Source: a virus. From it: 64,000 nt of DNA. A program made the translations under genes and the position numbers. Positions within the stretch are counted from its first letter, which is position 1, and each line of letters opens with the position of its first letter. A model generated the notes under the pieces. The model searched no databases. It was not told the origin of the DNA and saw nothing but the letters and a program-made list of their open reading frames with translations. Location of the stretch: the UHGV virus genome UHGV-1410950, one strand, 5' to 3'. Shown here in pieces: positions 1,060-39,502 of the stretch.

Positions 1060-1088
1060 ATAATACGTCATGCGTGCCGTATGGTCAA
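1060..1088 (-). promoter_or_regulatory. sigma70-like promoter (TTGACC-17-TATTAT) with GCATGACG spacer element
   Basis: Minus strand reads TTGACCatacggcacgcatgacgTATTAT. Member of the recurring CGTA(A)TAAT promoter family. Leader contains CCAACCTGAGGAA before the ATG at 1023. Confidence 0.4.
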
Positions 1089-1948
1089 TCTTTTTTCTTA
1101 CCTAAATACGCGTCAAGCACCATTTGGTCGGTCTTCATGTTCATCAGCTCGCGCAGCTTGTCTTTCGGTGCTAGCTTGACGGCCTGCGTTTCCCAGCCCA
1201 TTGCCACCGGGGATCCTCCGACGCGCTTCGCCAGATACATGCGAGAAACGGACGTGGTGCGCTCAAAGTCACCCAGTACGCCAGTGATCTCGATCTGTAG
1301 CCCTGACTCCTCCCATGTCTCTTTTATGGCGTTCTGCTGGAGCGTGAGCCCCGGCTCAGTACCACCCTTCGGGAAAGTGTTCTGGTAGCCGCCGAAAGCG
1401 TTGGTCGGGCTGATAATCCACACGCGACCGTCAGGCTCCTCAATGATGACGCCGGACGCCGGACGCTTCCCGGCTGGTACCATTAACGGCTGCTCGGTCA
1501 TCTGTTTGGTACCCTTCACAAAAGCCCATCCCGCGTCGGTCTTCGGTGCTCCAGTCCACGGCGCGACCGGGACGCCGTTCAGCTCCTGCGGCGCAGCACC
1601 ATTAGGCGTGAAGGTGGCCACCTCGTTGCTTGCTGCCCACGTTGGCGCTTCGGTCGGCTTACTCGGATGGTTTACCACGACGCGATTGCCCTTCTCCCCT
1701 AAGCGTGGGTGATGGACAATTTTCGTCGGCATTCCTTTGCTGGCGGTCGTCCTGTGCGTGCCGTATGGCGTTGTGGGCAGCGTTGGTTTGCGGAAATAGG
1801 CTTTCTTGGCCTGAGGCTTCGCAGGCGCTTTGGGGGCCGCAGGCGCGTCAGGTTTGGCTGCTGCCTTCCCGTTGTCGTGCGGCTTCACCCAGACGCCATC
1901 GCTCCGGCGATAACCCTTCACCTGCGCTTTCAGGAAAAGTTTAGTCAT
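1085..1948 (-). CDS. Nudix hydrolase with Pro/Ala/Lys-rich N-terminal extension
   Basis: C-terminal Nudix box GGTEPGLTLQQNAIKETWEESGL (GX5EX7(K/R)EXXEEXGL). The first ~190 aa are low-complexity (PAK-rich). Start set at the internal ATG (MTKLFLK), which overlaps the stop of gene 1941..2423. Confidence 0.65.
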   Translation of the reverse strand: MTKLFLKAQVKGYRRSDGVWVKPHDNGKAAAKPDAPAAPKAPAKPQAKKAYFRKPTLPTTPYGTHRTTASKGMPTKIVHHPRLGEKGNRVVVNHPSKPTEAPTWAASNEVATFTPNGAAPQELNGVPVAPWTGAPKTDAGWAFVKGTKQMTEQPLMVPAGKRPASGVIIEEPDGRVWIISPTNAFGGYQNTFPKGGTEPGLTLQQNAIKETWEESGLQIEITGVLGDFERTTSVSRMYLAKRVGGSPVAMGWETQAVKLAPKDKLRELMNMKTDQMVLDAYLGKKKD

Positions 1949-2423
1949 TGCCTTCCACTCCCAGCATCCACTGCGCCATGGATTCGACGCTGTTCTGCAC
2001 GCGGGCGGCGATCTCAGCATCCTTTCCGCCCTTGTCAAATGCCTGGTAAATACTGATCGCAAAGCGGGCCATAGCGTGCGCGACGATCAGCGCGGGATCC
2101 GTTTCATCCTTCGCCAGCCCCTTCACGTTCTGAATCCAGCGCGGCAGCGCGAAGTCATTCCAGCCCGGCAGCACGCTAAAGCCTGCGGTGTTACCCACAA
2201 AGATGTTAGCGGTGTTCAGCGCCTGCGCACGGTCGGCCTCCAGCGCTTCTTTCTCAGTCATCTGGTTGGCCTGCACCTTAGCGATGCGTCCCACGATGTC
2301 CTTGGCGAAGTTATTCAGGATGGTGCGTGCCACGTTGATATCGCCCAGATAAACGCTGCCATCAGCAGCGTTCAGACCTTCGATAAACCACGTTGGATCA
2401 GTATGTCGGTTCAATTCAGCCAC
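1941..2423 (-). CDS. hypothetical protein
   Basis: 160-aa ORF immediately downstream of the giant ART gene, translationally coupled. Confidence 0.55.
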   Translation of the reverse strand: MAELNRHTDPTWFIEGLNAADGSVYLGDINVARTILNNFAKDIVGRIAKVQANQMTEKEALEADRAQALNTANIFVGNTAGFSVLPGWNDFALPRWIQNVKGLAKDETDPALIVAHAMARFAISIYQAFDKGGKDAEIAARVQNSVESMAQWMLGVEGND

Positions 2424-2432
2424 AGAGCCCCC

Positions 2433-5400
2433 TTATACGCTCGGCAGGATGATACATTCCACAACGGTCATGCCGCTGCCGCCAAAGCCATCGGCGTCCT
2501 TAGTCCCCGATTCGTTCACCTTAGTGATGAGGAGGCGGGTATTAGGTGGCAGGATAATTTCTTTTTCCCCGGTATGGTGCGAGATAGATCCACCACTCGG
2601 AAGCGAGCCAGCGCCCGCATAGATACCTTTTACGCCGGGGCCTGCTGTCATTTTGAGGTGAATATTACCACTCCACACGTCTGGACTGATAGACGTGGAC
2701 ATAATTGCAGGCTCCATGATGACCTTGCCTACCGACGCTTTCAGCTTGGAGAGATCACCGCTGCCCAGACTGAATTTGCGCCCGAACGTGGTACCCGGCG
2801 AAATTTCATGGCCCATACCAGACAGCGCCTGCGCTGCTGCTTTCGCTTCTGCGCTTGGGTTGCCCTTCCACAGTCCGCTGTTCATCTGCTTATAACTGCT
2901 ACCAGTATACGCCTGCACGGCCTGTTTTTGTGTCATCGGCAGCTTTTCCCACACTTCCTGTGCTGCTTTGGCATAAGTGTTTGTGGTCAGCGTGCCAGCC
3001 TTGAACGTGGTTTTAGTAATGCCAAGGTCTTCCGGCTCAACAATCCCCGGATGGCCCAGTACCAGCAGGTTCCCGATCTTGTCTGCATCGTTACCGCTCC
3101 AGTTTTCCGGCTTGTATTCTTCGTGCATCGAATACAGCGGGTGATCGCCGCCGATACGGAACTGCTCGGCTTCATGCCCGGCAAGCTGGCTCTTAATCTC
3201 GTTAATCGCCTGCATCGCGTAGCCTTTGATATGCTGCGATGGGTGATCGAGCACTGGCACCTGTCCGGTAACAGCTCCGGTGTCTTTGTCAAAGGTTGGC
3301 GCGGTCAGGCCGCGAATGGCTTCCGGGTCTCCGGTCAGCGCCGCAGAATAAATGGCCTGCGCCGCGTCGTGGTTCCCTTTGTTCAGGAACTCTTTGGAGG
3401 ACGGGCCGGATTTGCCAACGCCAGACCAGTTGAGGAAGTCAGGCGGGGTACTGATTTTCTCCGGCTTGAATTTCTGCATTTTGATGATCTTCTCGGCTTC
3501 CGGGTACTTCTCAGCCAGATACTCTTTGCGCTTGATGAGCGTTTCCACCAGCTCCTTTTTCGCCTTATCATCGCCCGGCCCATACTGGTTGACCATGTGC
3601 GCAATTTTGGCGTCGGAGATAGCCAGTACCTTGGAGACAGACGCGGCGATATCGGCCTCAGTCATGCCACCGAAGACGGCTGCGCTGTTCGCGTTCATCT
3701 TCGGATCCATCAGTGACTCCAGCTCCTTAACGACAGGGCCAAATTCTTTCTTCGCACCCTGCGCACGGAACATCAGCGAGCCGCCCGCATCGACGCGGTG
3801 AATGGTGCCGTCATCTTTCAGCTGCACGTTGTCTTTCGCCAGCCCCACGACATCCCAGTTACCCAGCCACGCATCAACGGCGAAGCCTTCCAGCATCCCC
3901 TTGGCCTTCGCCAGCGCTGCATGGGTTTTGGCCTTCTTGATGTTCTCCCACTTCGAGGCAATAGCCATTTTCCCGTCCTTGGTGACGATCATGGCGTCCT
4001 GCGCGGACAGCCCAGCGGCGCTATACAGTTTCGCTGCCAGCACCTCAGCCTTGGCGTGCTCCTCGTTATCCGGGAACTTCACATACCATTCCTGCCCATC
4101 GGCGTCCTTCATTTTCATGCCTTCATTCGAACCGCCTTGGTTGCCCCCGGTCACTGTCCACTCATCGACGCTGATCGGCTCTTTCTTCTTCCACTGGTAC
4201 TTTTTGACCTCCATCGGGCCATCAGCGGCAAGGCCATTCTCTGCCGGGTTGCTGGTCGCGGCGGTAGCCTTCATCAGCTGCGCGACGCCATTCATAGCAT
4301 AGGTGCCATTCACCTCAGGGTTATAACCTGACTTAACCTTTATCCCATTAGCCATCAGCATCATCGACGCATATTGCGCCAGCGCCTTTTTACCCGGCGC
4401 GGTCGGGCCATACTCCGTTGAGACCTTAATTTTCATCCCAAACTCGCCATAAATCAGCATCGAACCATCGGCTTTCTGCATGATGACGCCTTTGGTGCCG
4501 CCGCCTTTGGTCAGCTTGGCTTTGAGGTTATCTACATATTTCATGTAGTGATCCTGCTGCCAAGCGCTCAGGCCAAGCGCAGCGAAGTCAGGCGCTGGGA
4601 TCTCGTCAGGATTGGCCCTAACCCAGCGCCCGTTTTTCAGGATCAGCATCCCGTTGGCACCCGGCTTCATGTCGCCTTCTTTTGGGCCATCGTCGGCCTT
4701 CTTCGCATCTTCTTCGGCTACGGTATTCTTGATAGCCGTCAGGATCCCGTCGATAGCCACAGTGGCAAAATCGTTGATGGTCAGCACGCTTTTAATGGTG
4801 CTGACTGCATCAACCTTGTCCGGGTTGGCGTCGTAGTATTCCTTGCACGCCACCGATGCTTTGACGACCTTTTGCAGCCCGCTTTTGGTCTCCGCGATGC
4901 TCTTGATGTCGTCCAGCAGTTTCAGGTCAATCATTCCCAGATCCGGCGCGGCAGTTTCCGGTGCTGGCGCAGGCTCCTCAGCTCCGGTGATCTGATCCTG
5001 TACAAAGGTCATGGTGCTGATTGCGTAATCAGTCATGCTCATTTTGACCAGATCGGTTCCCTGATTCGCCATCAGCGCATACGCGGATTCTTTGACGCTG
5101 TTCAGCACAGCCTCTTTCATTTCCTTCGAGTCGGTGTACTTCGCCAGCATCGCCATCGCTGCCAGACCATCCAGTGCATCGGCATCCGCCATGCTATCGC
5201 CTTTGTAGCTGGCTTTCGGGATCCCCTGCGGGACGCCGTGCATGTTGATGCTGTCTTTCAGTGTGGACTGTAGGACAGGGATATGTGACACGTTATCGCC
5301 TGCGGCCTTCACGATGTCCTGATAGGTGGCAGGGTTGTCGCCTTTCTTCGCCACGTACTCCTGCACAGCCATCAGCGTTTCGAGGTTGTCTTTGGCGTTG

Positions 5401-8400
5401 TTGAAGACCAGCCCAAGGTCATACATGTTTTTCGGCTTTTCCGGCGCAGCGGTCAGCTTGCTGATAACCTCAGCCATGTACTCCTTGTACTTATTACCGT
5501 TGATCGTGGTGCCCGGCGTCGCGTTCTGCTCATATTTCATGGCCTCGATGAGCAGCTTTTTGCTGTTCTCATCCTTCGCCAGTGTTGCGGCGATGGCGTA
5601 GCCCTGAAAATCAGTTGCCTCGGTCGAGTAGAAACCAACATCCGGCTTAATTGGCAGATTGAACGGCTTCCCGTGCTTCTTAAAGTAATCCTGCCCGATT
5701 TCAGACGCGGCGTAGACGTGCCCGCTATTCATTTTCAGGATGTTGTCGATAACGGTCGTGTATGCGCCCTTATCGCCATTGTTGTCCTTGATGAATTCCA
5801 GACCGATAGCACTCGCATCATCGCCGTTAGCGCCAGCCAACGCCTGTTTGAGCGCCACAATCTCGCTGCCCGCGCTGCCATTTGCTGAGGTCTCAGGCAT
5901 GTCCTGCTGTAAGATCCAGTGCCCGTTATGGAAGACCAGCGTACCGCCTTTACCCTGCTTGGTATCACCCTCCTGCGGGCCATCCTCTACCAGCCACTTA
6001 TTGACCTCCTGCTGGTACAGTTTAACCTGCACAGCAGCTGGCTCGGAAAGGTGAAGCTCGCTCAGCTCATTAAAGTGCTTGGCGATCACATCAGGATCCG
6101 ATTCTTTGCCTTTGTGAATTTCTTCGGCAATGACGTTATAGAGGGTCTGCACTTTCGTGCCATAGGTTTTCACCGTATCGCTGGTTGGTGATACCAGAGG
6201 TTTTTCTGGCTCAGTGCCGTAAGTCTCGCTCCACCATTTCCCGTAGGCTTTCTTACCTGCGATAAAGAATTCATTTGCCAGCTCGTTAAAGCCATTGTCC
6301 TTCATGGCCTCAGCCATCGCCACCAGATGCGGCGCATCGTGACCGTTAGCCGTCATCCAGTCGCCAGCCATCGCATCGGCTTGCTTTTCGTCCTTGGCAT
6401 CTGTCAGCATGTCAAACGCACTTTCCCACAGAGCGTAATCGTTCAGGATCGCTTTCTTCTCCTGCTTACGCTCATGCTTAGTGGCAGTCTGCTCGGATTT
6501 CGCCGCAGCCTGAGACTTCTCGGCCCATGAATCGTACAGCTTCCCGACGCTGGACTCGGAGAAGGCCAGATCGCTACCGTAATAGGTAGACGCCTGCTCA
6601 ATGAATGCCTCGCCTTTTGTCTTCGCCCACTCGTTGAACTCAGCCACATCGGCAAAATCCGGCAGCTGCGGCTCAGGGGTTGGCGCACGCTCCTGCTTGA
6701 TCTGCGGTGGCGTCGGCAGGGATTTCACGGAGATATCGCCCAGCTCTTTCTTGGCGGCGGTCACGGCTTCGATGATCCACGCGGACAGATCAACCTTCTG
6801 GAAGGCATCAATCAGGTTCTGGTCATCACGGATCACTGTCACCATGTCGTTGATGTTGTCCACAGCCAGCGCCCAGTTACCCGCGTTGAGGTCATTCTGG
6901 ATGTCCTCACAGATGCCGTCGATAAACGCATCACCAGTCTGCGGAGGATTGGAGAAAGTCTTCACTCCCTCAGGCTTAGGCGCAGCAGCAAGGCCCAGAG
7001 ACTCCGCCAGATTGACCGCAGGCTCTTTGCCAGCCATTACCTGCTGGTAAACCTCATTCTGCGTGTTGGAGAAGCCGGAGATATGGCCCCAGTCGCCCTT
7101 CTCGTTAACCCACATACCAGAGCCCGGATTCTTCGGATCCGCGACGATGACTGCGCTGGTATTGGTCGGGTAAACGCCTGCGTCTGGAGTCGTGGACAGC
7201 ACGCCATTCCACATGTTCTTGATGACGTTTTGCTGCTTCTTGGTCAGGTGATTCGGCTTGCCCAGCTCCACCAGCTCGGTCGGGTACTCGCTATGGTGAT
7301 AGTCGGAAATGTAGCCCAGATTGTCCGGGGTTTTGGTGTTGCCACCAAAGCCGATCAGTTTCAGGTACTGGCCCGCTTGGAACGGTTTCGCCAGCGGCTC
7401 CCCCTTCTTGCTCATAGGCCATGCGGTCGCGTGCCCCATCAGCACTTTCAGGTACGGGTTGCCGTCCTTGTCATAGGTCTGGATGATCGAGCCAGCAGGC
7501 AGGTTAGGCATGTCAGAGATAGACAGCTTCTGGCCCTTTTTGAACTCACCAGCGACAGGCTGATCCTTGAGCGGCTCGCCAGTCTCCTGATTGTGCCAGC
7601 GACCGTCTTTGAAGACCTGCATCCCGTTTTTGCCCATGCGGGTTTCACCTTCCTGCGGGCCTTCCTCAGCCCGGACGGCTTTCTGCTGCTCAACCTCGGC
7701 GCTGGCCTTCTGATCCTTTTCTGCCTGGCTAAACTGGCCCAGCATTGGATGCACGGCGTCTTTGCCGATGACCACTTTGATGTCAGGGTAGCCCAGCGCT
7801 GCCAGCGCGTTATTCGCAGCCTTGGCGACTTTGAGCCCGTAGGTGTTTTTGCCGTAGGTCATCGCCAGAATGCCGTTGATGTTGCCTACTTCGCCAGCGG
7901 CCTTGATAGCGGCGATCTGCGCGTTGTAGCTCTTGGCATTCTTAATGTTCTCCGCGACGGCGAACTGGCTCCAGTCGATAGCTTCCATGGCCTTCTTCGA
8001 CACGGATGCTTTCGGGGCTGGCTTGCCTTCGGCGGTGTCCGGCTGCGCCGGGGAGGTAGCGATGATTTCAACCGCGCTCAATGGGCTCGGCTCCTCGGAC
8101 TGCACCAGCGGCTTATTCGGATTCTCACCCGTCAGCAGCGCCAGCTTTTGCCCGTAGAGGTTCAGCAGCTTTTTGCTGTTCGGGGTGATGCCCTTCCAGC
8201 TTTTCGCCTTGCTCTTGATAGCTTCCAGCTCCGCCAGACTGGTGGCGTCGATGACCTTCTGAGCCTGCGCCTCATACGCGGTGCGCACGCCAGTGGAGTT
8301 TTTGCCGGATTCAAATTTAGGCATGACGATTTCGCCTGGCTTCGGTGCTTCGGCAGCAGGTGTTGAGGCTTTCTGGACTTCTTCTTTAGCTGCGTTTTTT

Positions 8401-9188
8401 TTCTCAGGTGAAGGAGACGGCCCATCTTTTGGCATAATAAGGCTTAGTTTTTTTGCGCCACCCGGTTCAGTTTTAAAGTATCCAAACTGCGTACCGTAAT
8501 TCTCAATCGCGTGCAGCTGGTGCTGTTTTAAATCACCAATCTCAATAGTGATGACGTTATTTTTTACTTTGTATGCTTCAATCGGTGGCAGACCTAGGTA
8601 ACTCTCAATTCCAGAAACAATGGCTTGTTGTTTGGCTGTCAAATTACCTGTAGCTGGTTTTGTTGCTGCCTTTGCCTCTTGCGCTACGGCTTCAACGGCC
8701 TGCTCAGCCATCTGATCGACGGTCTCAGGCTCTCTCTCGTATGTGGCGATGGCAGGGTGCTCACCCGCTTTCTGGCCCGCGCTGACCTTCTCCTGCGAGC
8801 CCATTTGCTCCAGCAGATAGTTGGCAATCGCCACCAGCTTTTTACCGTGGGTGTTCACGCCATAGGATGATCCCAGAATCGCCGCGATATCGCCGTTGGC
8901 AGCGTGCTGCAACAGGTTCGGGACGTGCTTCTGGTTGAAATGCTTAATGTCTTTGTTGGTCGCCTCTTTTTCAGCAGGATAGAACAGCTGGCTCGACTCC
9001 TCCTGAGGCATGGCGTAAGGTTTATGGCCTTTGCCACCAGCTTTAGGGTGCGCGGCTTTCGGGGCGTTCTTGACGCCCTTCATGTCCGGCGTGGTTTTCT
9101 TCCAGCGCCCATTGATCAGAGCATAGCCCGCTTGGTGGGCGAATTTTTGATTAAGTGCTTTTGCGAGGACAAGCATGGTGGCCACCAT
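2433..9188 (-). CDS. giant (2251 aa) multidomain protein: C-terminal ADP-ribosyltransferase domain, internal repeats, kinase-like segment; candidate virion-delivered polyvalent effector
   Basis: The C-terminal ~185 aa carry the ART signature YTGSSYKQMN ... FGRKFS (Arg) ... MSTSIS (STS) ... GEKEIILP (ExE). Three ~30-aa repeats of the form GP(Q/K)EGD(T/M)K(Q/P)G.(N/G)G.L...NG(R/H)W. Two copies of a (I/N)xAILGSSYGVNTHGKKLV-like module near the N-terminus. A segment AWLGNWDVVGLAKDNVQL..IHRVDAGG resembles kinase catalytic and DFG-like loops. Confidence 0.8.
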   Translation of the reverse strand: MVATMLVLAKALNQKFAHQAGYALINGRWKKTTPDMKGVKNAPKAAHPKAGGKGHKPYAMPQEESSQLFYPAEKEATNKDIKHFNQKHVPNLLQHAANGDIAAILGSSYGVNTHGKKLVAIANYLLEQMGSQEKVSAGQKAGEHPAIATYEREPETVDQMAEQAVEAVAQEAKAATKPATGNLTAKQQAIVSGIESYLGLPPIEAYKVKNNVITIEIGDLKQHQLHAIENYGTQFGYFKTEPGGAKKLSLIMPKDGPSPSPEKKNAAKEEVQKASTPAAEAPKPGEIVMPKFESGKNSTGVRTAYEAQAQKVIDATSLAELEAIKSKAKSWKGITPNSKKLLNLYGQKLALLTGENPNKPLVQSEEPSPLSAVEIIATSPAQPDTAEGKPAPKASVSKKAMEAIDWSQFAVAENIKNAKSYNAQIAAIKAAGEVGNINGILAMTYGKNTYGLKVAKAANNALAALGYPDIKVVIGKDAVHPMLGQFSQAEKDQKASAEVEQQKAVRAEEGPQEGETRMGKNGMQVFKDGRWHNQETGEPLKDQPVAGEFKKGQKLSISDMPNLPAGSIIQTYDKDGNPYLKVLMGHATAWPMSKKGEPLAKPFQAGQYLKLIGFGGNTKTPDNLGYISDYHHSEYPTELVELGKPNHLTKKQQNVIKNMWNGVLSTTPDAGVYPTNTSAVIVADPKNPGSGMWVNEKGDWGHISGFSNTQNEVYQQVMAGKEPAVNLAESLGLAAAPKPEGVKTFSNPPQTGDAFIDGICEDIQNDLNAGNWALAVDNINDMVTVIRDDQNLIDAFQKVDLSAWIIEAVTAAKKELGDISVKSLPTPPQIKQERAPTPEPQLPDFADVAEFNEWAKTKGEAFIEQASTYYGSDLAFSESSVGKLYDSWAEKSQAAAKSEQTATKHERKQEKKAILNDYALWESAFDMLTDAKDEKQADAMAGDWMTANGHDAPHLVAMAEAMKDNGFNELANEFFIAGKKAYGKWWSETYGTEPEKPLVSPTSDTVKTYGTKVQTLYNVIAEEIHKGKESDPDVIAKHFNELSELHLSEPAAVQVKLYQQEVNKWLVEDGPQEGDTKQGKGGTLVFHNGHWILQQDMPETSANGSAGSEIVALKQALAGANGDDASAIGLEFIKDNNGDKGAYTTVIDNILKMNSGHVYAASEIGQDYFKKHGKPFNLPIKPDVGFYSTEATDFQGYAIAATLAKDENSKKLLIEAMKYEQNATPGTTINGNKYKEYMAEVISKLTAAPEKPKNMYDLGLVFNNAKDNLETLMAVQEYVAKKGDNPATYQDIVKAAGDNVSHIPVLQSTLKDSINMHGVPQGIPKASYKGDSMADADALDGLAAMAMLAKYTDSKEMKEAVLNSVKESAYALMANQGTDLVKMSMTDYAISTMTFVQDQITGAEEPAPAPETAAPDLGMIDLKLLDDIKSIAETKSGLQKVVKASVACKEYYDANPDKVDAVSTIKSVLTINDFATVAIDGILTAIKNTVAEEDAKKADDGPKEGDMKPGANGMLILKNGRWVRANPDEIPAPDFAALGLSAWQQDHYMKYVDNLKAKLTKGGGTKGVIMQKADGSMLIYGEFGMKIKVSTEYGPTAPGKKALAQYASMMLMANGIKVKSGYNPEVNGTYAMNGVAQLMKATAATSNPAENGLAADGPMEVKKYQWKKKEPISVDEWTVTGGNQGGSNEGMKMKDADGQEWYVKFPDNEEHAKAEVLAAKLYSAAGLSAQDAMIVTKDGKMAIASKWENIKKAKTHAALAKAKGMLEGFAVDAWLGNWDVVGLAKDNVQLKDDGTIHRVDAGGSLMFRAQGAKKEFGPVVKELESLMDPKMNANSAAVFGGMTEADIAASVSKVLAISDAKIAHMVNQYGPGDDKAKKELVETLIKRKEYLAEKYPEAEKIIKMQKFKPEKISTPPDFLNWSGVGKSGPSSKEFLNKGNHDAAQAIYSAALTGDPEAIRGLTAPTFDKDTGAVTGQVPVLDHPSQHIKGYAMQAINEIKSQLAGHEAEQFRIGGDHPLYSMHEEYKPENWSGNDADKIGNLLVLGHPGIVEPEDLGITKTTFKAGTLTTNTYAKAAQEVWEKLPMTQKQAVQAYTGSSYKQMNSGLWKGNPSAEAKAAAQALSGMGHEISPGTTFGRKFSLGSGDLSKLKASVGKVIMEPAIMSTSISPDVWSGNIHLKMTAGPGVKGIYAGAGSLPSGGSISHHTGEKEIILPPNTRLLITKVNESGTKDADGFGGSGMTVVECIILPSV

Positions 9189-10900: not shown

Positions 10901-11119
10901 TTATTTATCTTTCTCGCGGTTGTAGCGCTCATGGGTTAGCAGATCCCATGTATCGCCATTATCCCGGCTCAGCAAACGCCAGCGGATGCCGACCTTTAAC
11001 GAGATACCACCGCTGCGCTTGAGGTGGGTTATTGCTGCCTCTCCGCGCTGCCACATTTCCAGAATCTGCCCGGCTTTTATCAGCGCCTGAGCGGGAATTC
11101 CTTTCATTGCCTTGAACAT
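10901..11119 (-). CDS. hypothetical protein
   Basis: 72-aa ORF. Its ATG directly follows the U-run of hairpin 11121-11150, with the SD (GGTGAGG) inside the stem. Confidence 0.45.
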   Translation of the reverse strand: MFKAMKGIPAQALIKAGQILEMWQRGEAAITHLKRSGGISLKVGIRWRLLSRDNGDTWDLLTHERYNREKDK

Positions 11120-11120
11120 A

Positions 11121-11150
11121 AAAAAAGCCTCACCTTGGGTTGGTGAGGCT
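11121..11150 (-). terminator. terminator-like hairpin + U7 immediately before the start codon
   Basis: agcctcacc-ttgggttg-gtgaggct with A7 on + (U7 on the minus transcript). The next ATG is at 11119. Confidence 0.5.
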
Positions 11151-11180
11151 ATATTATTACGTCATGGGTGACGTGTCAAC
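11151..11180 (-). promoter_or_regulatory. sigma70-like promoter TTGACA-17-TAATAT with palindromic CGTCA-N4-TGACG spacer
   Basis: Minus strand reads TTGACAcgtcacccatgacgtaaTAATAT. The -35 overlaps the stop of gene 11176..11541. Confidence 0.5.
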
Positions 11181-12111: not shown

Positions 12112-12556
12112 CAGCCTGCTCCTTTGCTGGTTCGCGCAGGACACGGGCGTAATGCTCAGCGCGGGCGCAAATGTTGTTCATGCTGCTGCGCTCTTTGTCG
12201 AGCCAGTCAGCCTTGAATGCCGCCTTTTCTTCCTCAGGCAGGACGCTCAGGGCTTTCTCATATGCCCGGCGCTCAGCCATACTACCGATCAGGAATGACT
12301 CGAATACCTCAGCCAGCGCCTCTTTGTCGCACTGCTCAAAGGACTCCCCGACCGTTTTACCGAAGGTCTTCTGGAAAAACTCCTCGGTGCCGCCAAACAT
12401 GAACAGCGGGACTTTGCGAGGCTCAGTCTCAGTGTCGAGCTCAGTTGCGCCATACTGACCGCCCATGATGCCAACGGCGATAGCCGCGAGCTCATGCGTT
12501 GGTGCTTTAAAGGTGATTTTATCTGACAGGTTGATCAGCTCCCAGAGGCTCATGAT
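12101..12556 (-). CDS. hypothetical protein
   Basis: Start MSLWELINL in an ATGA overlap with the upstream gene. Confidence 0.5.
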   Translation of the reverse strand: MMSLWELINLSDKITFKAPTHELAAIAVGIMGGQYGATELDTETEPRKVPLFMFGGTEEFFQKTFGKTVGESFEQCDKEALAEVFESFLIGSMAERRAYEKALSVLPEEEKAAFKADWLDKERSSMNNICARAEHYARVLREPAKEQADGE

Positions 12557-12846
12557 GCTGGCTCCTCTTTTGGTTTGCCTTCGAACTTCTTGCCGCAGAA
12601 TGGGCAATAATTCATCGTCATAAACGAACTGCCATCAGTGCAGCGCTGAGCCAGCGAGCCATCTTTCTTGCGCTTGAGAAAGCGGAAGGTGTAAGGCACG
12701 GTGACGCTGGAGTGGTCGCCATCAGCCAGGACAAACACGCTGTTTGTCCAGTTGGCTTCTTCGATCTCTCCAATTTGATCGCCAAAGCGCTTGGTCAGGT
12801 GCTCTTTGAACTGAGCCCCCAGCTTTTTGAAACAATCACAGGCCAT
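12550..12846 (-). CDS. small zinc-ribbon protein
   Basis: CxxC ... CxxC (MACDCF ... YCPFCG). AAAGGA RBS. Confidence 0.5.
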   Translation of the reverse strand: MACDCFKKLGAQFKEHLTKRFGDQIGEIEEANWTNSVFVLADGDHSSVTVPYTFRFLKRKKDGSLAQRCTDGSSFMTMNYCPFCGKKFEGKPKEEPAS

Positions 12847-12922: not shown

Positions 12923-12950
12923 ATGATACGTTATGCGTGACGTAATGCAA
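12923..12950 (-). promoter_or_regulatory. sigma70-like promoter TTGCAT-16-TATCAT with CGTCACGCATAACG spacer
   Basis: Member of the recurring promoter family. A second CGTAAATAAT element lies just upstream at 12953-12975. Confidence 0.4.
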
Positions 12951-12981
12951 GTATTATTTACGCCACTGCTGACGCATGGAG

Positions 12982-13004
12982 TAAAAAAGGCCCCGTAGGG
13001 CCTT
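12982..13004 (-). terminator. rho-independent terminator after gene 13091..14410
   Basis: aggccc-cgta-gggcct preceded on + by A6. Confidence 0.55.
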
Positions 13005-14831: not shown

Positions 14832-14862
14832 AAAAAAAGTCCTCCGCTTGTGGGGAGGACTT
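14832..14862 (-). terminator. terminator-like hairpin + U7 abutting the start codon
   Basis: agtcctcc-gcttgtgg-ggaggact with A7 on +. Confidence 0.55.
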
Positions 14863-14888
14863 TAGCGCGTTATCTTTTTTGACGCAAG

Positions 14889-14917
14889 AATTATTTACGG
14901 CATACGTGACGCATCAA
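14889..14917 (-). promoter_or_regulatory. sigma70-like promoter TTGATG-17-ATAATT with CGTCACGTATGCCG spacer
   Basis: Minus strand reads TTGATGcgtcacgtatgccgtaaATAATT. Overlaps the stop of the ParB-methylase gene. Confidence 0.4.
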
Positions 14918-24778: not shown

Positions 24779-24814
24779 GGGGAATCCTTGGTTGTCGGTT
24801 GGTGAAGTTTTTAT

Positions 24815-24843: not shown

Positions 24844-24851
24844 ACGCATAA

Positions 24852-24873
24852 TAAAAAAGCCCCCGCAGGGGCT
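24852..24873 (-). terminator. rho-independent terminator after the Eib-like gene
   Basis: gcccc-cgca-ggggc with A6 on +. Confidence 0.6.
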
Positions 24874-24890
24874 TCTAATTACAGATCGGT

Positions 24891-26045
24891 TTACCAGCCG
24901 TATGAAGCCCCGACGCCGACTACAAAGTTATGCTGGGTGTCGTTGGACACGGACGCCTTAATAACGGTGTTCTGAGAGGCGCGGGCAGAGAAGCCGACAG
25001 CCAGCGCAGATTCGCCATCAGTGTTACCAGCGCCAGCGCCGATAGCAAAGGTCTGGTGCTCCAGTACCTGCGGGATGTTTGCCATGGCGGCGACGCCTGC
25101 GATACCTGCTGACGCACGTTTGCGGTTGTCATCGATCTGCTTGTTCAGGTCGGCAAACTTGCTATTGGTCTGCGATTCCAGCCCCTGAATGCGCTGCTCA
25201 TGGTTGGCAATATCGGCGGTGTTCTGGGCTACACGCTTATTGGTCGCATCCAGAGCCTGACGGTTCGCCTCAGAGTGGGCATACGCCGCATCAGCGCGAG
25301 ACTGCGCATACGCGCCAGTGTCCTGCGCCTGTTTCACGCCAGCGCTCAGCGTGGTGAACTGGCTTGAGCGGGTGGAGGTCTCAGCCGCCAGAGCGGAATC
25401 CTGACGCTGCTGGTCTACAGCAAAATCAGCCTGGTTGACTTTGGTCGCCAGAGCATTGGTGTTGCTGGTAATGCGCAGGTCATGGTCAGCCAGTGCCGCA
25501 TCATGCTGCTGGTCGGCAGCTTTGCGGTCATTGGTCTCATTGGTAAGAGCCACGCCGTTACCCACTACGCCTGCCAGTGCGGCATCCGCTTTATCACTAT
25601 TCGTGGAGATCAGCGCATCCTGATCGTTGTCGCGGACTGCCTGTGCAGCCTTATCGGCATCATACGCGGTCTGGTCAACCTTATCAGCCAGGCCATTCAG
25701 TGCCGCCTGCGCATCGGTCTTGGCAGAGCCAGCCAGATTCAAAGCAGAGCTCGCTTCCTGCTGTGCGGCGTCCGCTTTCTGGTCAACGGCGATCACACCC
25801 AGCTTGGTGCTTTGCAGGTCGGCATCCACACTGGTGATGCGGTCGCCCAGTTGAGTATCGCGGGTTTCAGAGTCCAGCTTGTTCTGGGTGATTTGGTTCT
25901 GGTGATCGTTGATCAGGTCGCTGGTTACATTTGCGCGGGCGTCCTGAATGCGGTCATATGCAGACGGGGACGGATTCGGAGCAGCAATCGCTGCGGAAGT
26001 GGTGGCAGTAAAAGTCAGAGCGATAGCCAGCTTGGTCAGTTTCAT
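24891..26045 (-). CDS. trimeric autotransporter adhesin of the YadA/Eib type
   Basis: Signal peptide MKLTKLAIALTFTATTSAAIAAP. Long coiled-coil stalk. C-terminal YadA-like anchor ending ...VGVGASYGW. Confidence 0.75.
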   Translation of the reverse strand: MKLTKLAIALTFTATTSAAIAAPNPSPSAYDRIQDARANVTSDLINDHQNQITQNKLDSETRDTQLGDRITSVDADLQSTKLGVIAVDQKADAAQQEASSALNLAGSAKTDAQAALNGLADKVDQTAYDADKAAQAVRDNDQDALISTNSDKADAALAGVVGNGVALTNETNDRKAADQQHDAALADHDLRITSNTNALATKVNQADFAVDQQRQDSALAAETSTRSSQFTTLSAGVKQAQDTGAYAQSRADAAYAHSEANRQALDATNKRVAQNTADIANHEQRIQGLESQTNSKFADLNKQIDDNRKRASAGIAGVAAMANIPQVLEHQTFAIGAGAGNTDGESALAVGFSARASQNTVIKASVSNDTQHNFVVGVGASYGW

Positions 26046-26098: not shown

Positions 26099-26127
26099 AA
26101 CTATACGGCACGCATGACGCGTCCGCA
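26099..26127 (-). promoter_or_regulatory. sigma70-like promoter TTGCGG-17-TATAGT for the Eib-like gene
   Basis: Minus strand reads TTGCGGacgcgtcatgcgtgccgTATAGT. TGAGG RBS before the ATG at 26045. Confidence 0.45.
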
Positions 26128-26228
26128 ATAGCGCAATGATAAATTTTCCGTATTATTCCGCTGGAATGATTCAGGGGACTGATTGGAAAGGAGATTTATT
26201 TTAGCCCCCGTGGGCTGGGGGCTAAAGA

Positions 26229-28355: not shown

Positions 28356-28547
28356 GTGAACTCCCAGAATCAAAATCGGTCGCAGCTTCGCCAGCACGGC
28401 AAAGCCGATAATCAGGTATGCCAGCAGCCATCGCACATCGGCCCAAGTCATCGCGGTGCGGCCTGCAACATGCCAGCGGTGAATCTGCCAGAGCGGAAGC
28501 AGCAGGAAGCACAGGATCAGCGCCAGCATGACGCTTTGCCCTGTCAT
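28353..28547 (-). CDS. small membrane protein (64 aa)
   Basis: Two transmembrane segments (MLALILCFLLLPLW ... LLAYLIIGFAVLA). Confidence 0.5.
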   Translation of the reverse strand: MTGQSVMLALILCFLLLPLWQIHRWHVAGRTAMTWADVRWLLAYLIIGFAVLAKLRPILILGVH

Positions 28548-28909
28548 CGCGCTTTCTCCTCCTCCAGAGTTTCCTCAATGATGCGCCCGGCTACCCAGTT
28601 GCTCAGGTTCTTGCGGGACGGAAGTCGCTTATAGCGGCCTTTGTGCCCGTTACGCTGCCCGCGCTGGGAATTCCAGCGGCGCAGGGTTGGCGCGTTGATT
28701 TTGGGCGGCAGCTTGGTCGGTTGAAGGGCCAGCTGTAATGCGGCGAGATACTGCACGCAGCTCTCATCGACGTTAGCGTCTGGGCCGATGTTAAGCCCGG
28801 TCTCGTTATTGAGCACCTTGCGCACCAGCTCCAGCGGCATGTTGGCGATGCGTGCCGCCAGCTCCGGTTGGTGCTCATTGAGCCATGCGGTCAGGATTGC
28901 GCGGCTCAT
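28544..28909 (-). CDS. hypothetical protein
   Basis: 121-aa ORF. Confidence 0.5.
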   Translation of the reverse strand: MSRAILTAWLNEHQPELAARIANMPLELVRKVLNNETGLNIGPDANVDESCVQYLAALQLALQPTKLPPKINAPTLRRWNSQRGQRNGHKGRYKRLPSRKNLSNWVAGRIIEETLEEEKAR

Positions 28910-29020
28910 AAGACTACTCCAGCAGGAATGGTCATCGTTGGAATCCTTGGGTAATGTGCCGGGCGGTGTGCCCGGCCTTGATGAGACAATAGCGGATTAT
29001 TTACGTCTTGTACAGCGTAA

Positions 29021-33827: not shown

Positions 33828-33896
33828 CACATAAATAAATAAATAAATATAAATAAATTATATAGTTAGTTAGTAGTAGTAGTAAGTGTCTGTGTT
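33828..33896. repeat. microsatellites (AAAT)n and (TAGT/TAG)n inside a 515-bp AT-rich noncoding region
   Basis: aaataaataaataaatataaataaatt then tagttagttagtagtagtagtaag. Confidence 0.8.
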
Positions 33897-34156
33897 GTGC
33901 TGTGACTGTGTTACGGCTGTGACGGTAAATCTATACCATTACGCGACTCAGGATGCCTATTACAGTATATCAATATCCTTACAGTAATTATTTTATTACT
34001 CTATAGGGGTATTTCTTTAGTTCTCTATATCTCCCTCGCATTTTTACTGTCCCACCGTCACAACTCCCACGCAAGCCGCGTCATTGCTGGATTTTTTGCG
34101 TTACTCAGGCACTGACACAGCAACTGGTGCAACTGTCCCCGCGTCACAGAAAAACC

Positions 34157-34180
34157 AAAAAAAAGCCCGCTTGCGCGGGC
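34157..34180 (-). terminator. rho-independent terminator after the Cro/CI-like gene
   Basis: gcccgc-ttgc-gcgggc preceded on + by A8. Confidence 0.65.
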
Positions 34181-34206
34181 ATTATCATTACTCTGTAACG
34201 AATTAA

Positions 34207-34628
34207 TTAAAAGTAGTCATCTTCCGCCTCGCCGATGGCCTCGCGTATTTTTTTCATGGCCTCCTCGGCTGATTTTAAGTTAAGTATTACATCGTCACGA
34301 TTATATTTCGGTTGGTTGTCCTGCACATCGCGCATGAGCCTCAGCATTGCGTTGGCACCGCGCACGAATTTATCCGTGTATTCCCCTTCGACTTTGGTCA
34401 GGTCAACGCTAGGGTTGAGGGTCAGCAGCATCGCCTCAAAGCGCTCATTGTTGACCTCAGGGATTTCCATCGCAGGCACGCGGCGTGCAGATACCAGGAT
34501 GCGCCCGGCGATAACCTCGGCGTCGTTCTTAATCCACTGGTGAACCTGCGGGGCATGAACCTTGAGCGCTCGCGCGAATTCAGTCTTATTGTCAGCGTAG
34601 TAGAGCGCGATATAGGTCGAGAGTTTCA
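34207..34628 (-). CDS. Cro/CI-type helix-turn-helix regulator
   Basis: Start MKLSTYIALYYADNKTEFARALKVHAPQVHQWIK (helix-turn-helix) with GAGGAAA RBS. The track ORF has a 52-aa spurious extension. Confidence 0.65.
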
Positions 34629-34631
34629 TCA

Positions 34632-34832
34632 CTATTTCCTCAGAATAAACGCCCGGAACACGGGCCAAAACAGAATATCGAATAGCAGCCAGAACAGGGC
34701 CAGCCCCACACCCAGCCACCACAGATCGCGCTGCTGGCTGGCATCGAAAATCATAAACGCCGGGATAAAGAGCAGTCCGAAGCAAATCAGCACGCTCAGC
34801 AGCTCACAGGCGCGGTTGATTGACTTAATCAC
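34632..34832 (-). CDS. small membrane protein
   Basis: 66 aa, two transmembrane segments. Confidence 0.5.
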   Translation of the reverse strand: MIKSINRACELLSVLICFGLLFIPAFMIFDASQQRDLWWLGVGLALFWLLFDILFWPVFRAFILRK

Positions 34833-36083: not shown

Positions 36084-36359
36084 TTAAAATCCTCCTGGTG
36101 CATTAGCAACGCGTTTCAGATGGTCGCGGTATTGCGCTTTGGTTTCGGTCATCAGCTCAGCCGGAACCTTACGGATCAGGGTGAATTGCTCGCCTGCGAG
36201 GTTGTAGCAGATGAAGCCGATCCCGTGGGAGCCGTCACCAAACTGGCGACCGGACACGCGCACGGCGATCCTTTCACTTTTGCCGTTGGTAGCTTGCGAC
36301 ATCGCTTTTTTGAGGATGTCAGCGAAGGCTTTCGCCTCCGCACCAGATAAAGTTTTCAT
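36084..36359 (-). CDS. hypothetical protein
   Basis: 91-aa ORF. Confidence 0.5.
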   Translation of the reverse strand: MKTLSGAEAKAFADILKKAMSQATNGKSERIAVRVSGRQFGDGSHGIGFICYNLAGEQFTLIRKVPAELMTETKAQYRDHLKRVANAPGGF

Positions 36360-36820
36360 CAGCGATCCCCTTCGTGGGTTGCGTCTTCAATCTCGCGGAG
36401 GCTTTTCCCTTCCGCCAGTGCTTTGGCCTGCCAGTAGTCGAGGCATCCCATCTGCGCTTCCATCTGTTCTTGATGCGCGGCATCCATCCAGCCAGCGTTT
36501 TCCAGATGGCGCTCATATGCGGCATCCGGGTCGCCGTGGTCGGCAAACTGCTCATACAGGTGGTCTTCGGTCTCTTTCTTCCACTCGGTGAAAGAGGCCA
36601 GCGCCGCGTTGAGCATCACCGGAGAATTGGAGAAGAACAGCGCCTTTTTCTCGGTGCGCTCAGCGCTGCCAGTCAGGGCCCAGCGCAGCACGACCACTTT
36701 GCCTTCGCCGCCGATTTCAACGCTCAGGTTATGAGCCGGGGAGCTCATGATCAGCTCGGTTAACAGCAGCTCAAATTCGGCCTTGGTCATGCGCGGTGCG
36801 GTGCGTTTTATGTTGGTCAT
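36359..36820 (-). CDS. hypothetical protein
   Basis: 153-aa ORF. Promoter 36855-36883 upstream. Confidence 0.55.
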   Translation of the reverse strand: MTNIKRTAPRMTKAEFELLLTELIMSSPAHNLSVEIGGEGKVVVLRWALTGSAERTEKKALFFSNSPVMLNAALASFTEWKKETEDHLYEQFADHGDPDAAYERHLENAGWMDAAHQEQMEAQMGCLDYWQAKALAEGKSLREIEDATHEGDR

Positions 36821-36854: not shown

Positions 36855-36883
36855 AATATACGTCATGCGTGACGGGTGCGCAA
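36855..36883 (-). promoter_or_regulatory. sigma70-like promoter TTGCGC-17-TATATT with perfect palindrome CGTCACGCATGACG in the spacer
   Basis: Minus strand reads TTGCGCacccgtcacgcatgacgTATATT. Leader contains CTCACCAACCCAAGGT. Confidence 0.45.
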
Positions 36884-37288: not shown

Positions 37289-37418
37289 AAGTACCTCTCT
37301 TAATAAAAATTGGCACATTGCCCCATGCGTTGCCACGGCTTGCATCGCCTTTCCCGGCCAGAGCATACCGCTCCCGGCAAAATATAATTACATCGCTATA
37401 TCCACGCTCACATGAATA

Positions 37419-37720
37419 TAACGCTGTATTAGCCCTTACCTCACCTTACCTCACCCTACCTCACCTTACCCTGCCATACCCGACCTCTGCTTTACTTCGC
37501 TATGCGCCCAAATCAGACGCATAACGCTGTATTAGCCCATGCCGCACCCAACCTCACCCTACCATACCCCACAAAGCCGTACCCAAACTTTACTTCGCTT
37601 TACCCCCGCGAACAGAGGTAAAACGCTGTATTAGCCCTAGCCTCACCCCTCCATACCGTGCCGTGCCTGACCGAACCGGGCCTTACCTCGACTTTATTTC
37701 GCTTTCAAATTTAATATAAT
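37419..37720. repeat. three tandem ~101-bp direct repeats (noncoding)
   Basis: Each unit starts with ATAACGCTGTATTAGCCC (37419, 37521, 37621). A ~55-nt C-rich, G-poor core follows with CCTCACC/CCATACC motifs. Each ends with ACTTTACTTCGCT. Confidence 0.85.
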
Positions 37721-38834: not shown

Positions 38835-38872
38835 ATGTGAAAGGATTATCCATACAGTAACTGCAAAAATCA
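38835..38872 (-). promoter_or_regulatory. sigma70 promoter TTGATT-17-GATAAT for the AT-rich cassette
   Basis: Minus strand reads TTGATTtttgcagttactgtatgGATAAT, between terminator 38895-38919 and the ATG at 38809. Confidence 0.5.
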
Positions 38873-38894
38873 ACATCTTTTTTGATGCGCCCTT

Positions 38895-38919: not shown

Positions 38920-38924
38920 GTTTG

Positions 38925-39443
38925 TTATCGTTGCAGCAGCAGGTCAACCTGCCGTTTCAGGGCGGAGATCTCCCAGTCCTTTTCCTCAATCGCTTTATTC
39001 TTCTCGGTCAGCACCTGACGGCACATTTCATTCAGTTTGAGGACATCCTGCCTGACGCCTTCGATTCTGGCGTCGCGCTCGGCTACCTTGCAGCGTTCGA
39101 GGTGGAGCGCCTCGCAGGTTTTGCTGTGCGCATCAATCTCAGCTTTATAGGCTAGCTTAGTGGTCTGGTGATCTTCCTCTGATTTTGTCAGGGCCAGCCG
39201 CAGGCGCATCAATTCCAGCATATCGTTGCCGCCGAAACTAAACGGATCCTGATAGCTGTGCTGCGTGCGGCGATATTCGCGCTGCTCAGGCTGAACCTTT
39301 GCGCCGGGCACGTTGATAGTGCGCAGGTCGATCCCGGCCTGATTGGCATAAGCCACGGCACGACCGAAAGCCGTTGCGGCTTCCTCTTTGTTCGTGGTGC
39401 CGTAGGCCAGCGCCAGCAGCTTTTCAATTTTCGCCCTACTCAT
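38925..39443 (-). CDS. DUF2786-like N-terminal domain protein with coiled-coil C-terminus
   Basis: N-terminus MSRAKIEKLLALAYGTTNKEEAATAFGRAVAYANQAGIDL matches the DUF2786-type motif. Confidence 0.5.
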   Translation of the reverse strand: MSRAKIEKLLALAYGTTNKEEAATAFGRAVAYANQAGIDLRTINVPGAKVQPEQREYRRTQHSYQDPFSFGGNDMLELMRLRLALTKSEEDHQTTKLAYKAEIDAHSKTCEALHLERCKVAERDARIEGVRQDVLKLNEMCRQVLTEKNKAIEEKDWEISALKRQVDLLLQR

Positions 39444-39461
39444 AAAAACTTCCTCAGGTTG

Positions 39462-39502
39462 TATCTTGGGTTGTTGCGCCGGATTATAATCAAAAAAGAG
39501 GA
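39462..39502. promoter_or_regulatory. divergent promoter region with palindromic GATTATAATC (-10 readable on both strands)
   Basis: 70-bp gap between divergent genes. TATAAT at 39485-39490. AAGAGGAG RBS for the + gene. Minus leader has CAACCTGAGGAAG. Confidence 0.45.

Follow-up and report, generated by a model that had tools for sequence, protein, structure and literature searches.

Phage P1 C1 is a single repressor with dispersed operators, and in the temperate Streptomyces phage phiC31 similar early promoters each carry a conserved inverted repeat that is bound by one repressor. The sites of mycobacteriophage L5 are asymmetric 13-mers that are read by a monomer and stop elongation. These stoperators of the cluster A mycobacteriophages are many dispersed intergenic sites of one repressor (PMC9283540, PMC6550527). 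Here we describe, in 64,000 nucleotides of the virus genome UHGV-1410950 (hereafter the window), a set of promoters of host sigma-70 type in the early region that share a palindromic element, the dyad. On the sequence comparisons presented below we incline, with a little better than even confidence, to the reading that the dyad is an operator bound by one small phage repressor of the XRE family.

The window represents about two thirds of a tailed phage of ~95 kb. Its closest relatives, ~95% identical, are Enterobacter phage phiT5282EW (PQ352032) and Escherichia phage ECML-606-1 (OL631484), whose genes are annotated as hypothetical almost throughout, and IMG/VR holds a single close relative. 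Yersinia phage fHe-Yen8-01 comes next, with a primase that is 58% identical, and 86–95 kb myoviruses of Aeromonas, Morganella, Pseudomonas and Bordetella are more distant at ~35%. We found no published papers on phiT5282EW, ECML-606-1 or fHe-Yen8-01 and no published transcription map for the group, and the Mecenats66 paper makes no statement on promoters. Leftward genes occupy the region from ~39,480 to 1, with some sixty small genes followed by one for a 2251-aa protein and then one for a NUDIX protein; a short rightward block (39,515–42,943) is followed by the replication module and the structural genes.

A dyad in promoters of sigma-70 type

A reading of the window from its letters alone (the sequence-only reading) had proposed a family of at least ten similar promoters with the palindrome CGTCA-N4-TGACG in the spacer. 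That palindrome is real and enriched, but the element is longer than was stated: in full it is TACGTCAC-NN-(A/G)TGACGTA, 16–18 bp with a core of ACGTC-N6-GACGT, and its arms, TACGTCAC and GTGACGTA, have their centres 11 bp apart, or one helical turn. With a position weight matrix built from nine sites we found 12 copies, distributed over 11 loci from 1060 to 39783. On the minus strand the 16-mers start at 1065, 11159, 12928, 12960, 14897, 21661, 21684 (degenerate), 24022, 24818, 26105, 29003 and 36860. The one at 39757 is on the plus strand, at a point where gene direction switches to rightward as well, and every copy faces its downstream gene. All seven of the minus-strand examples quoted in the sequence-only reading are present, two of them with spans that were off by 1–2 nt (the true spans are 26100–26128 and 24813–24841), and the elements that it listed as related, at 12953–12975 and 28990–29015, are genuine weaker members whose dyads (12960–12975 and 29003–29018) are conserved in relatives. 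What had been taken for a palindrome alone at 24022 is a dyad (24022–24037) that runs into an extended -10 element just ahead of the XRE gene, and the supposed palindrome at 22301–22315 is not a member, as it scores <8 with the matrix and lies in coding sequence. Three dyad sites are additions to that description: 21661–21676, the degenerate 21684–21699, and 39757–39772 on the plus strand, just outside the range first given.

The dyad is strongly over-represented, as had been anticipated for the motif relative to shuffled controls. CGTCACNNATGACGTA with up to three mismatches has 27 matches in the window (3.83 expected), a number reached in 0 of 100 shuffles; CGTCA-N4-TGACG with up to one mismatch has 17 (2.15 expected, again 0 of 100 shuffles); and ACGTC-N6-GACGT with up to one mismatch has 6 (1.54 expected), all six intergenic. 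Non-coding DNA makes up 7.9% of the window, and 11 of the 13 scored 16-mers lie fully outside open reading frames (ORFs) as judged on a crude gene map with a longest-ORF rule; the 24818 dyad is counted as coding only through longest-ORF overextension of that gene, and the 24022 dyad overlaps the last codons of the upstream gene. The ~41 kb of PQ352032 beyond the window equivalent, mostly structural genes, contain only one weak match, inside coding sequence. Exact enumeration of 5-mer dyads in five genomes was too strict to be useful, and a loose search with two mismatches was dominated by chance matches in coding DNA. A composite search for dyad plus hexamer was cleaner but at three mismatches still admitted background, with 16 matches against 6 in the window, and 18 against 16, which is not significant, in fHe-Yen8-01.

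Around the dyads the promoter frame is TTGnnn / 16–18 nt / TAnnnT, in many cases preceded by an A-tract. The TTG is shared by 10 of the 12 window sites, in the hexamers TTGACC, TTGACA, TTGCAT, TTGATG, TTGCGT, TTGTTG, TTGCGG and TTGCGC (twice), and is followed at 16–18 nt by TATTAT, TAATAT, TATCAT, TATAAT, TATAGT or TATATT; the XRE promoter has the extended -10 element TGcTACACT. At most sites the dyad spans approximately -28 to -11, and the final T of GACGT doubles as the first T of the -10 hexamer (e.g. GACG/TATAAT), so that the dyad overlaps the first bases of the -10. The offset between dyad and -10 is zero at most sites, +2–3 nt at 11159 and 14897, and +6 nt at 39757, and at these three shifted sites the TTG moves with the -10 and not with the dyad, the spacing staying at 16–17 nt; the mirror-image counterpart of the last in fHe-Yen8-01 (47923) is likewise displaced by +6 nt. 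The dyad slides relative to the -10 while the -35/-10 spacing is held, a freedom not expected of an element that RNA polymerase itself reads. Positions -27 to -23, which the left arm occupies, are not known to carry a base-specific signal in sigma-70 promoters, and the conservation of the arm there calls for another reader. The copy at 21661–21676 lies between the -10 and the ribosome-binding site, a repressor-type position from which it could only hinder transcription. We consider it probable that the dyad is a separate protein operator and not a polymerase element, and the held spacing, the conserved arms and the copy at the start site speak for the earlier suggestion of an operator for a phage regulator within a sigma-70-type promoter.

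An operator need not be a negative one, and a phage factor bound near -20 might instead recruit or re-programme the host RNA polymerase for middle or late transcription, in the manner of phage P1 Lpa or T4 MotA/AsiA. A palindrome lies near -22 in the Lpa promoters of phage P1. The late genes of that phage need Lpa as an activator (PMC8198154). In the window, the dyad has a fixed place abutting the -10 in most copies, the -35 hexamers are mostly TTGCnn and not TTGACA, and virion genes stand behind some dyad promoters (the ADP-ribosyltransferase gene, and the tail fibre/terminase cluster in fHe-Yen8-01), all of which would suit a positive element. Such a role is nevertheless improbable, as the promoters, with the TTG held at 16–18 nt, seem to have all that sigma-70 needs, some dyads are displaced by 3 or 6 nt from the usual place at the -10, one copy is downstream of the -10, plasmids carry the promoter-plus-dyad module with no phage factor except XRE, and the -28 to -11 span overlaps the polymerase footprint in a way typical of repression.

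Very little of our confidence goes to a palindrome that works as nucleic-acid structure or as an epigenetic mark, whether as an N4-like DNA hairpin promoter, an RNA hairpin or a paired ACGT methylation switch, even though the inverted repeat has a 5-bp stem, each arm contains ACGT and the phage encodes several DNA methyltransferases. Compensatory changes between the arms are absent, and mismatches at positions 5 and 14 are common and uncompensated; neither the giant virion protein nor any other scanned protein matches an RNA polymerase domain; and the palindrome lies upstream of the expected start and hence outside the promoter's own RNA. ACGT, GACGT and ACGTC show no genome-wide enrichment, searches of the window for known RNA families (Rfam) and tRNAs returned none, and the sigma-70 hexamers are intact. 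Two of these forms were ruled out individually, the N4-like hairpin promoter by the intact hexamers together with the lack of a polymerase gene among those scanned, and the methylation switch by the missing genome-wide ACGT signal. Three known element types were also rejected: MerR-type activation, since the spacers are 16–18 nt; the FliA/sigma-28 -10 element (GCCGATAA), which has different bases and would come with a TAAA -35 that is not present; and matS (GTGAC-N3-GTCAC), whose arms are in the opposite order.

Comparison with relatives separates the dyad from its surroundings. Information content, computed over 37 distinct match sequences that came from related contigs as well as from the window and its relatives (some of them reverse-strand readings of the same palindromic sites), is 1.4–2.0 bits per position in the arms, 0.6–1.1 at the two to four central positions and <0.7 in the flanks. 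The PQ352032 orthologue of the promoter at 36860 keeps the dyad with diverged flanks and centre (TACGTCAGCTATGTCGTA), and at 14897 the upstream flank is entirely replaced in three related loci (L010, L011 and L013) with the dyad intact. The downstream dyad at 21661–21676 is kept as ACGGC-N6-GACGT, with a changed centre, in OL631484, L011, L012 and L013. At 38845–38873 the window has a swapped-in dyad-less promoter (TTGATT / 17 nt / GATAAT) where ECML-606-1 and phiT5282EW have a promoter with a near-perfect 18-bp palindrome (TACGTCACTAGTGACGTA/CAAT). In fHe-Yen8-01 at least six promoters have the form TTGCGn...ACGTC-TAATCC-GACG/TATAAT, with the same arms, spacing and position and a different centre. 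Neither the dyad nor XRE was found in Aeromonas phage ST4 (L008/L009). ST4 has an intergenic repeat of its own, AGGGCGC-N4-5-GGGCGCA (two GGGCGC units ~11 bp apart), upstream of many genes, for example at 6173–6278, 12480–12639 and 86956–87115.

Shared spacers could also arise with no protein reading them, as a by-product of promoter/terminator cassettes that spread by recombination in the way of the PeSLs of T4-type phages, which are documented recombination points (PMC2839356, PMC4122927). Terminator–promoter cassettes do flank small orphan genes here, some breakpoints of insertions and deletions between the window and PQ352032 or OL631484 fall at dyad promoters (~21710, 24801–24891 and 38896), an insert specific to PQ352032 brings its own dyad promoter (63716), and the fHe-Yen8-01 copies share an asymmetric centre. 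The numbers are small, with ~3 of ~14 breakpoints relative to PQ352032 at dyad promoters, and most synteny breakpoints are away from dyads. Moreover, conservation is symmetric, high in the arms and low in the centre and flanks, arms survive between lineages whose centres are wholly different, and the 21661 dyad has no promoter hexamers of its own. Recombination may be an added consequence of the repeats, but it leaves the dyad symmetry unexplained, so we regard cassette spread as insufficient and, as the whole account, very unlikely.

An XRE-family protein as the candidate binder

Among three binders suggested by the sequence-only reading, an XRE-family helix-turn-helix (HTH) protein of 120 aa (23619–23981, minus strand) is the one that we propose as the dyad-binding repressor. 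It matches Pfam HTH_3 (PF01381; 24.3 bits against a cut-off of 23, E=3.3e-5, residues 9–45), has weak matches to the solved XRE-type chains 8tac and 7xi5, and contains the only above-threshold sequence-specific DNA-binding domain among the ~65 window proteins scanned with Pfam. The other two suggestions, a Cro/YdaS-like protein of 192 aa (34207–34785) and a 113-aa HTH protein (50445–50786), fall below the Pfam threshold, and there is no dyad at the promoters of their genes. The predicted recognition helix of XRE, T30-L-R-x-Y-Q-R-K-E38, is identical in all homologues including a Yersinia protein only 35–38% identical overall, and this invariance would match that of the dyad arms.

The XRE gene is itself associated with a dyad. 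Its promoter has the dyad, then an extended -10, 40–55 nt before the start codon, and the dyad is perfect or has one mismatch in the window, PQ352032, OL631484 and the related loci L010, L011, L016 and L019. In L013 and L014 two dyads flank the -10, and in L012 the dyad is degenerate; where XRE lacks its own promoter, in fHe-Yen8-01, L015 and L017, the dyad is at the operon promoter that precedes the YadA-like gene. On the computational evidence every testable property of an XRE-type repressor–operator pair is present: an HTH_3 domain, half-sites about one turn apart with symmetric conservation, an operator overlapping the promoter core or start, and a regulator gene behind its own operator.

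Homologues of XRE among 50,697 phage records occur only in three dyad-bearing phages, none was found in 185,579 species genomes, and a metagenome scan yielded 73 loci with a single true relative (L019) among them, the rest being generic XRE proteins. As a control, 390 kb of unrelated metagenome loci with generic XRE genes and other recognition helices contain 8 dyads with up to one mismatch, one of which (L068) is within 400 bp upstream of its HTH gene. A distant relative with tandem HTH motifs, found on IncFII plasmids of Klebsiella, differs in its recognition helices, lacks a dyad and was set aside as uninformative.

At least three Enterobacteriaceae plasmids (L015, NZ_OQ821049; L016, pPEC414_4; L017, AP022423) carry the YadA-like gene and XRE without the rest of the phage, at 77–86% nucleotide identity. 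On p09A21010_A_KPC and pSTW0522-44-4 the dyad belongs to the YadA promoter, on pPEC414_4 to that of XRE. Three further small genes flank the module on two of the plasmids, and XRE is the only protein with a DNA-binding domain among plasmid proteins that have window homologues. On some plasmids insertion sequences flank the module and an HNH endonuclease gene lies between the two genes. Taking together the dyads at its own or its operon promoter and this co-capture on plasmids, XRE is clearly favoured by sequence over the Cro/CI-like and 113-aa HTH candidates of the original suggestion.

An alternative explanation is that the dyad is an operator with a different reader: one of the domain-less small proteins, the Cro/YdaS-like protein, the 113-aa HTH protein, or a host factor conserved in Escherichia, Enterobacter and Yersinia. 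All of the operator arguments hold equally for such a protein, fHe-Yen8-01 encodes homologues of the other HTH candidates too, Pfam matches are lacking for most early proteins, and the plasmid dyad promoters would still work with a host factor. However, pPEC414_4 has only the XRE and YadA-like genes from the phage and yet has a perfect dyad at the XRE promoter; no other plasmid protein with a window homologue has a DNA-binding domain; the two further HTH candidates have the shortcomings given above; and no enterobacterial regulator is known to have an ACGTC-N6-GACGT site. We therefore judge a different reader to be unlikely, although it deserves more weight than a positive element.

Several observations weigh against XRE repression as we propose it. 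The virion ADP-ribosyltransferase gene also stands behind a dyad promoter, as does a tail-fibre/terminase cluster in fHe-Yen8-01, which is awkward for a simple early shut-off; the regulator may set a ceiling on expression or its timing rather than an early/late split. The AlphaFold2 monomer of XRE, from an alignment of eight sequences, has a pLDDT of 57 and a pTM of 0.31, too poor for fold comparison or for a dimer interface. Common descent confounds the joint occurrence of XRE and dyad in phages, a host factor would account just as well for the retention on plasmids, and ~50 small early-block proteins have no detectable domain, any of which could be the real binder. Finally, the TAATCC centre of the fHe-Yen8-01 motif is conserved yet asymmetric, which suggests either extra constraints or recent homogenisation of cassettes.

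We infer three things, that a protein binds the dyad, that this protein is XRE, and that its effect is repression. With XRE as repressor, host sigma-70 RNA polymerase would fire the dyad promoters, and XRE, presumably as a dimer, would bind across -28 to -11 and block polymerase engagement, or, at the copy at 21661–21676, would sit over +1 and block the start site. As XRE accumulated, the leftward early/middle array and the first rightward operon would be turned down together, and since the XRE gene sits behind a dyad operator, XRE would limit its own synthesis. The computational tests agree with the coordinated control of an early gene array that was first proposed, apart from its restriction to the early genes, as the dyads are not limited to classic early genes.

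Two further ideas follow from the distribution of XRE. XRE and its operator could constitute a portable immunity unit, with plasmids that have captured the repressor, along with a YadA-like surface protein behind the same operator, silencing incoming phages of a presumably virulent 95-kb myovirus lineage without any prophage, since one repressor could shut the promoters of nearly the entire early/middle programme, although we think this quite a long shot. The Yersinia homologue (fHe-Yen8-01 62457–62795; L007 15457–15795) is annotated 'particle associated protein', as are many early-region proteins there. This annotation may reflect either proteomics carry-over or genuine packaging of regulators, and XRE might enter the cell with the DNA and time early transcription.

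Individual promoters, terminators and neighbouring features

The promoters are numbered along the window; P1 to P10 are on the minus strand. Promoter P1 (1060–1088) has -35 TTGACC (1083–1088), dyad ACGGCACGCATGACGT (1065–1080) and -10 TATTAT (1060–1065) with a 17-nt spacer and an AAAAAAGA tract directly upstream; it drives 595–1023 and genes downstream, and its fHe-Yen8-01 orthologue (85562) keeps the arms. AAAAAAGA occurs 8 times in the window against 2.1 expected (at 1089, 14873, 18266, 38876, 39492, 39745 and others), mostly in leaders or, in the manner of an UP element, abutting -35 hexamers on the upstream side, and the 16-mer ATAATCAAAAAAGAGG is found twice, at 39484–39499 and 39737–39752.

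Promoter P2 (11126–11179) consists of -35 TTGACA (11174–11179), which contains the TGA stop of the upstream gene, dyad ACGTCACCCATGACGT (11159–11174), which is 3 nt further upstream than usual, and -10 TAATAT (11151–11156). Its terminator hairpin (11126–11150; AGCCTCACC/GGTGAGGCT plus T7) runs right up to the ATG of the gene that comes first behind the unit and encodes a protein with a ParE-like toxin domain (10901–11119, minus strand; 72 aa, PF24732, E=1.8e-16). In promoter P3' (12953–12975), just after a terminator (12987–13004), dyad GCGTCAGCAGTGGCGT (12960–12975) is joined to TAAATAAT (12953–12960), and in tandem with it is promoter P3 (12923–12950), with -35 TTGCAT (12945–12950), dyad ACGTCACGCATAACGT (12928–12943) and -10 TATCAT (12923–12928). 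Promoter P4 (14890–14917) has -35 TTGATG (14912–14917), dyad GCGTCACGTATGCCGT (14897–14912) and TAAATAAT (14890–14897). A second, dyad-less promoter candidate near it (TTGCGT / 17 nt / TAAAGT, 14859–14887) abuts a hairpin at 14836–14863.

Promoter P5 (21661–21706) has -35 TTGCGT (21701–21706), a degenerate dyad, GCATCATAAATGATGT (21684–21699), in the spacer and -10 TATTAT (21679–21684), and a second and perfect dyad, ACGTCGCATATGACGT (21661–21676), that covers the expected start site in the interval from the -10 to the Shine-Dalgarno sequence. It drives a DUF7696 gene (21391–21648) and a methyltransferase-rich operon. The XRE gene's own promoter, P6 (24014–24037), has dyad GCGTCAGTGATGACGT (24022–24037), the extended -10 TGcTACACT (24014–24022) and then a TGCCGTA half-site. 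Promoter P7 (24813–24841), directly after the terminator at 24855–24876, has -35 TTGTTG (24836–24841), dyad GTGTCACCTATGGCGT (24818–24833) and -10 TATAAT (24813–24818). Promoter P8 (26100–26128), with -35 TTGCGG (26123–26128), dyad GCGTCATGCGTGCCGT (26105–26120) and -10 TATAGT (26100–26105), drives the YadA-anchor gene (24891–26045), and the same promoter is present on plasmids L015 and L017 and on phage contigs L013 and L014.

The weaker promoter P9 (28996–29018), upstream of 28544–28909, has dyad ACGCTGTACAAGACGT (29003–29018) and TAAATAAT (28996–29003), and its orthologues in PQ352032 and OL631484 keep ACGCT-N6-GACGT. Promoter P10 (36855–36883), with -35 TTGCGC (36878–36883), dyad CCGTCACGCATGACGT (36860–36875) and -10 TATATT (36855–36860), drives 36359–36820 and on down to the Cro/YdaS-like gene. 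On the plus strand, promoter P11 (39755–39783) has -35 TTGCGC (39755–39760), dyad GCGCCACGTATGCCGT (39757–39772), which is 6 nt further from the -10 than usual, and -10 TATTAT (39778–39783) with a 17-nt spacer, and drives the rightward block from 39811. A generic sigma-70 consensus has fewer matches in the window than after shuffling (5 versus 9.9, and 6 versus 12.9).

Terminators adjoin promoters at 11126–11179, 12953–13004, 21679–21734, 24813–24876 and 26100–26210 (the last ~60 nt away), and not at the other sites. The claim that promoters follow a terminator is thus sound for about five sites, the intrinsic terminators upstream of promoters being at 12987–13004, 21713–21734, 24855–24876 and 26150–26210, with the exception that at P2 the promoter (11151–11179) is upstream of the hairpin and abuts it. 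There the order is reversed: the 9-bp hairpin and T7 start at the first base after the -10 and end at the ATG. Predicted folding energy for this unit is -16.0 kcal/mol for read-through RNA and -2.6 kcal/mol for RNA that starts 7 nt after the -10. The start of promoter P2 is probably inside the 5' arm of the terminator, and with the start there the folding would predict that upstream transcripts stop while P2's own transcripts continue with a free ribosome-binding site. The fHe-Yen8-01 promoters at 76887 and 85562 are built in the same way. A GC-rich hairpin and T-run ending exactly at the next ATG, with the ribosome-binding site in the 3' arm, is also seen at 14836–14863, 58720–58770 and several fHe-Yen8-01 sites.

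Elsewhere in the window, the 2251-aa protein (2433–9188, minus strand) has a C-terminal ADP-ribosyltransferase domain (PF03496) as its sole Pfam match, and the fHe-Yen8-01 annotation lists it as particle-associated. Like T4 Alt, it may be injected to modify the host. The NUDIX-domain protein (1085–2062, minus strand) is encoded two genes downstream of it. An SF2 helicase gene (47607–50390, minus strand) contains an intein with a Hint domain and a LAGLIDADG homing endonuclease, a window-specific insertion of ~1.05 kb at 49233–50284, and the helicase of the close relatives is intein-less (576 aa). A 91-aa HU/TF1-like DNA-binding protein (54533–54808, plus strand) is called 'transcription factor 1' in ECML-606-1 and is particle-associated in fHe-Yen8-01.

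Three imperfect direct repeats of ~115 bp at 37367–37719 each consist of GGGCTAATACAGCGTT, a variable hairpin and AGCGAAGTAAAG, and are each preceded by runs of GGTAAGGTGAGG-like 10-mers; they have no Rfam match and are perhaps small RNAs or iterons. Adjoining the gene for the Cro/YdaS-like 192-aa protein is a 376-bp AT-rich gap (33831–34206) with TAC/TAA/ATTT micro-repeats and repeated ACTGTAA, a layout kept in fHe-Yen8-01 (51948–52113), and this could be a replication origin. The window has a single GACGTC (an AatII site) where 8.6 are expected, and CTAG reaches 0.31 of its expected count.

Comparison with known systems

The set of dyad promoters put forward here as co-regulated has not been described before; a repressor with many operators is textbook biology, and the mechanism is conventional. 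The dyad promoters provide a first testable picture of early-region organisation and co-regulation in this phage group, and name one protein and one 16-bp site. If XRE does shut the dyad promoters, XRE supplied in trans should block infection, which would be relevant to phage-therapy candidates such as the ECML phages and to the plasmid-borne YadA-XRE module. The promoter that abuts its terminator is a compact insulation design that could be reused in synthetic biology.

The placement of a dyad between -35 and -10 is shared with the promoters of MerR regulators. Those promoters have over-long spacers of 19–20 bp that are repaired by the activator, whereas here the spacers have the optimal length of 16–18 bp and the candidate protein is of XRE type. 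In layout, the closest likeness is to the PeSLs of T4-type phages, with repeated sigma-70-like early promoters and stem-loop terminators, small orphan genes, and some insertions and deletions at cassettes (PMC2839356, PMC4122927). PeSLs have no dyad operator in the spacer, their conserved extra being a GGGG/CCCC stem-loop, and in the window, unlike PeSLs, the terminator is upstream of the promoter or abuts its downstream edge. As the phage here is not T4-like and PeSLs lack an operator, the dyad promoters are not PeSLs.

In function, the likeness is to phage P1 C1 and the L5 stoperators, in which many sites of one small repressor are distributed over short intergenic regions of a large genome. 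The L5 sites are asymmetric, whereas the dyad is symmetric and within the promoter core. Both of those phages are temperate and their repressors maintain lysogeny, whereas the phage here shows no sign of lysogeny in the window or in the genomes searched. Integrase and plasmid-partition domains were absent among the ~65 window proteins scanned with Pfam, with ~31 kb of the phage outside the window, and neither 5,426 E. coli genomes nor 72,556 plasmids contain a prophage-like copy, only the YadA-XRE module being found. With no sign of lysogeny, we do not place the system among the temperate immunity systems. Phage phiC31 is alike in having a promoter family with a repeat, and differs in host phylum and promoter type.

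In mechanism, the system most resembles Cro and CI of the lambdoid phages, which are of the XRE family: an HTH_3 protein, half-sites one turn apart, an operator over the -35/-10 region, and an operator at the regulator's own promoter. No lambdoid operator is known to match the half-site ACGTC(AC). Lambdoid phages have a few clustered operators in two divergent control regions, whereas here at least 12 single operators are placed in separate promoters across ~39 kb.

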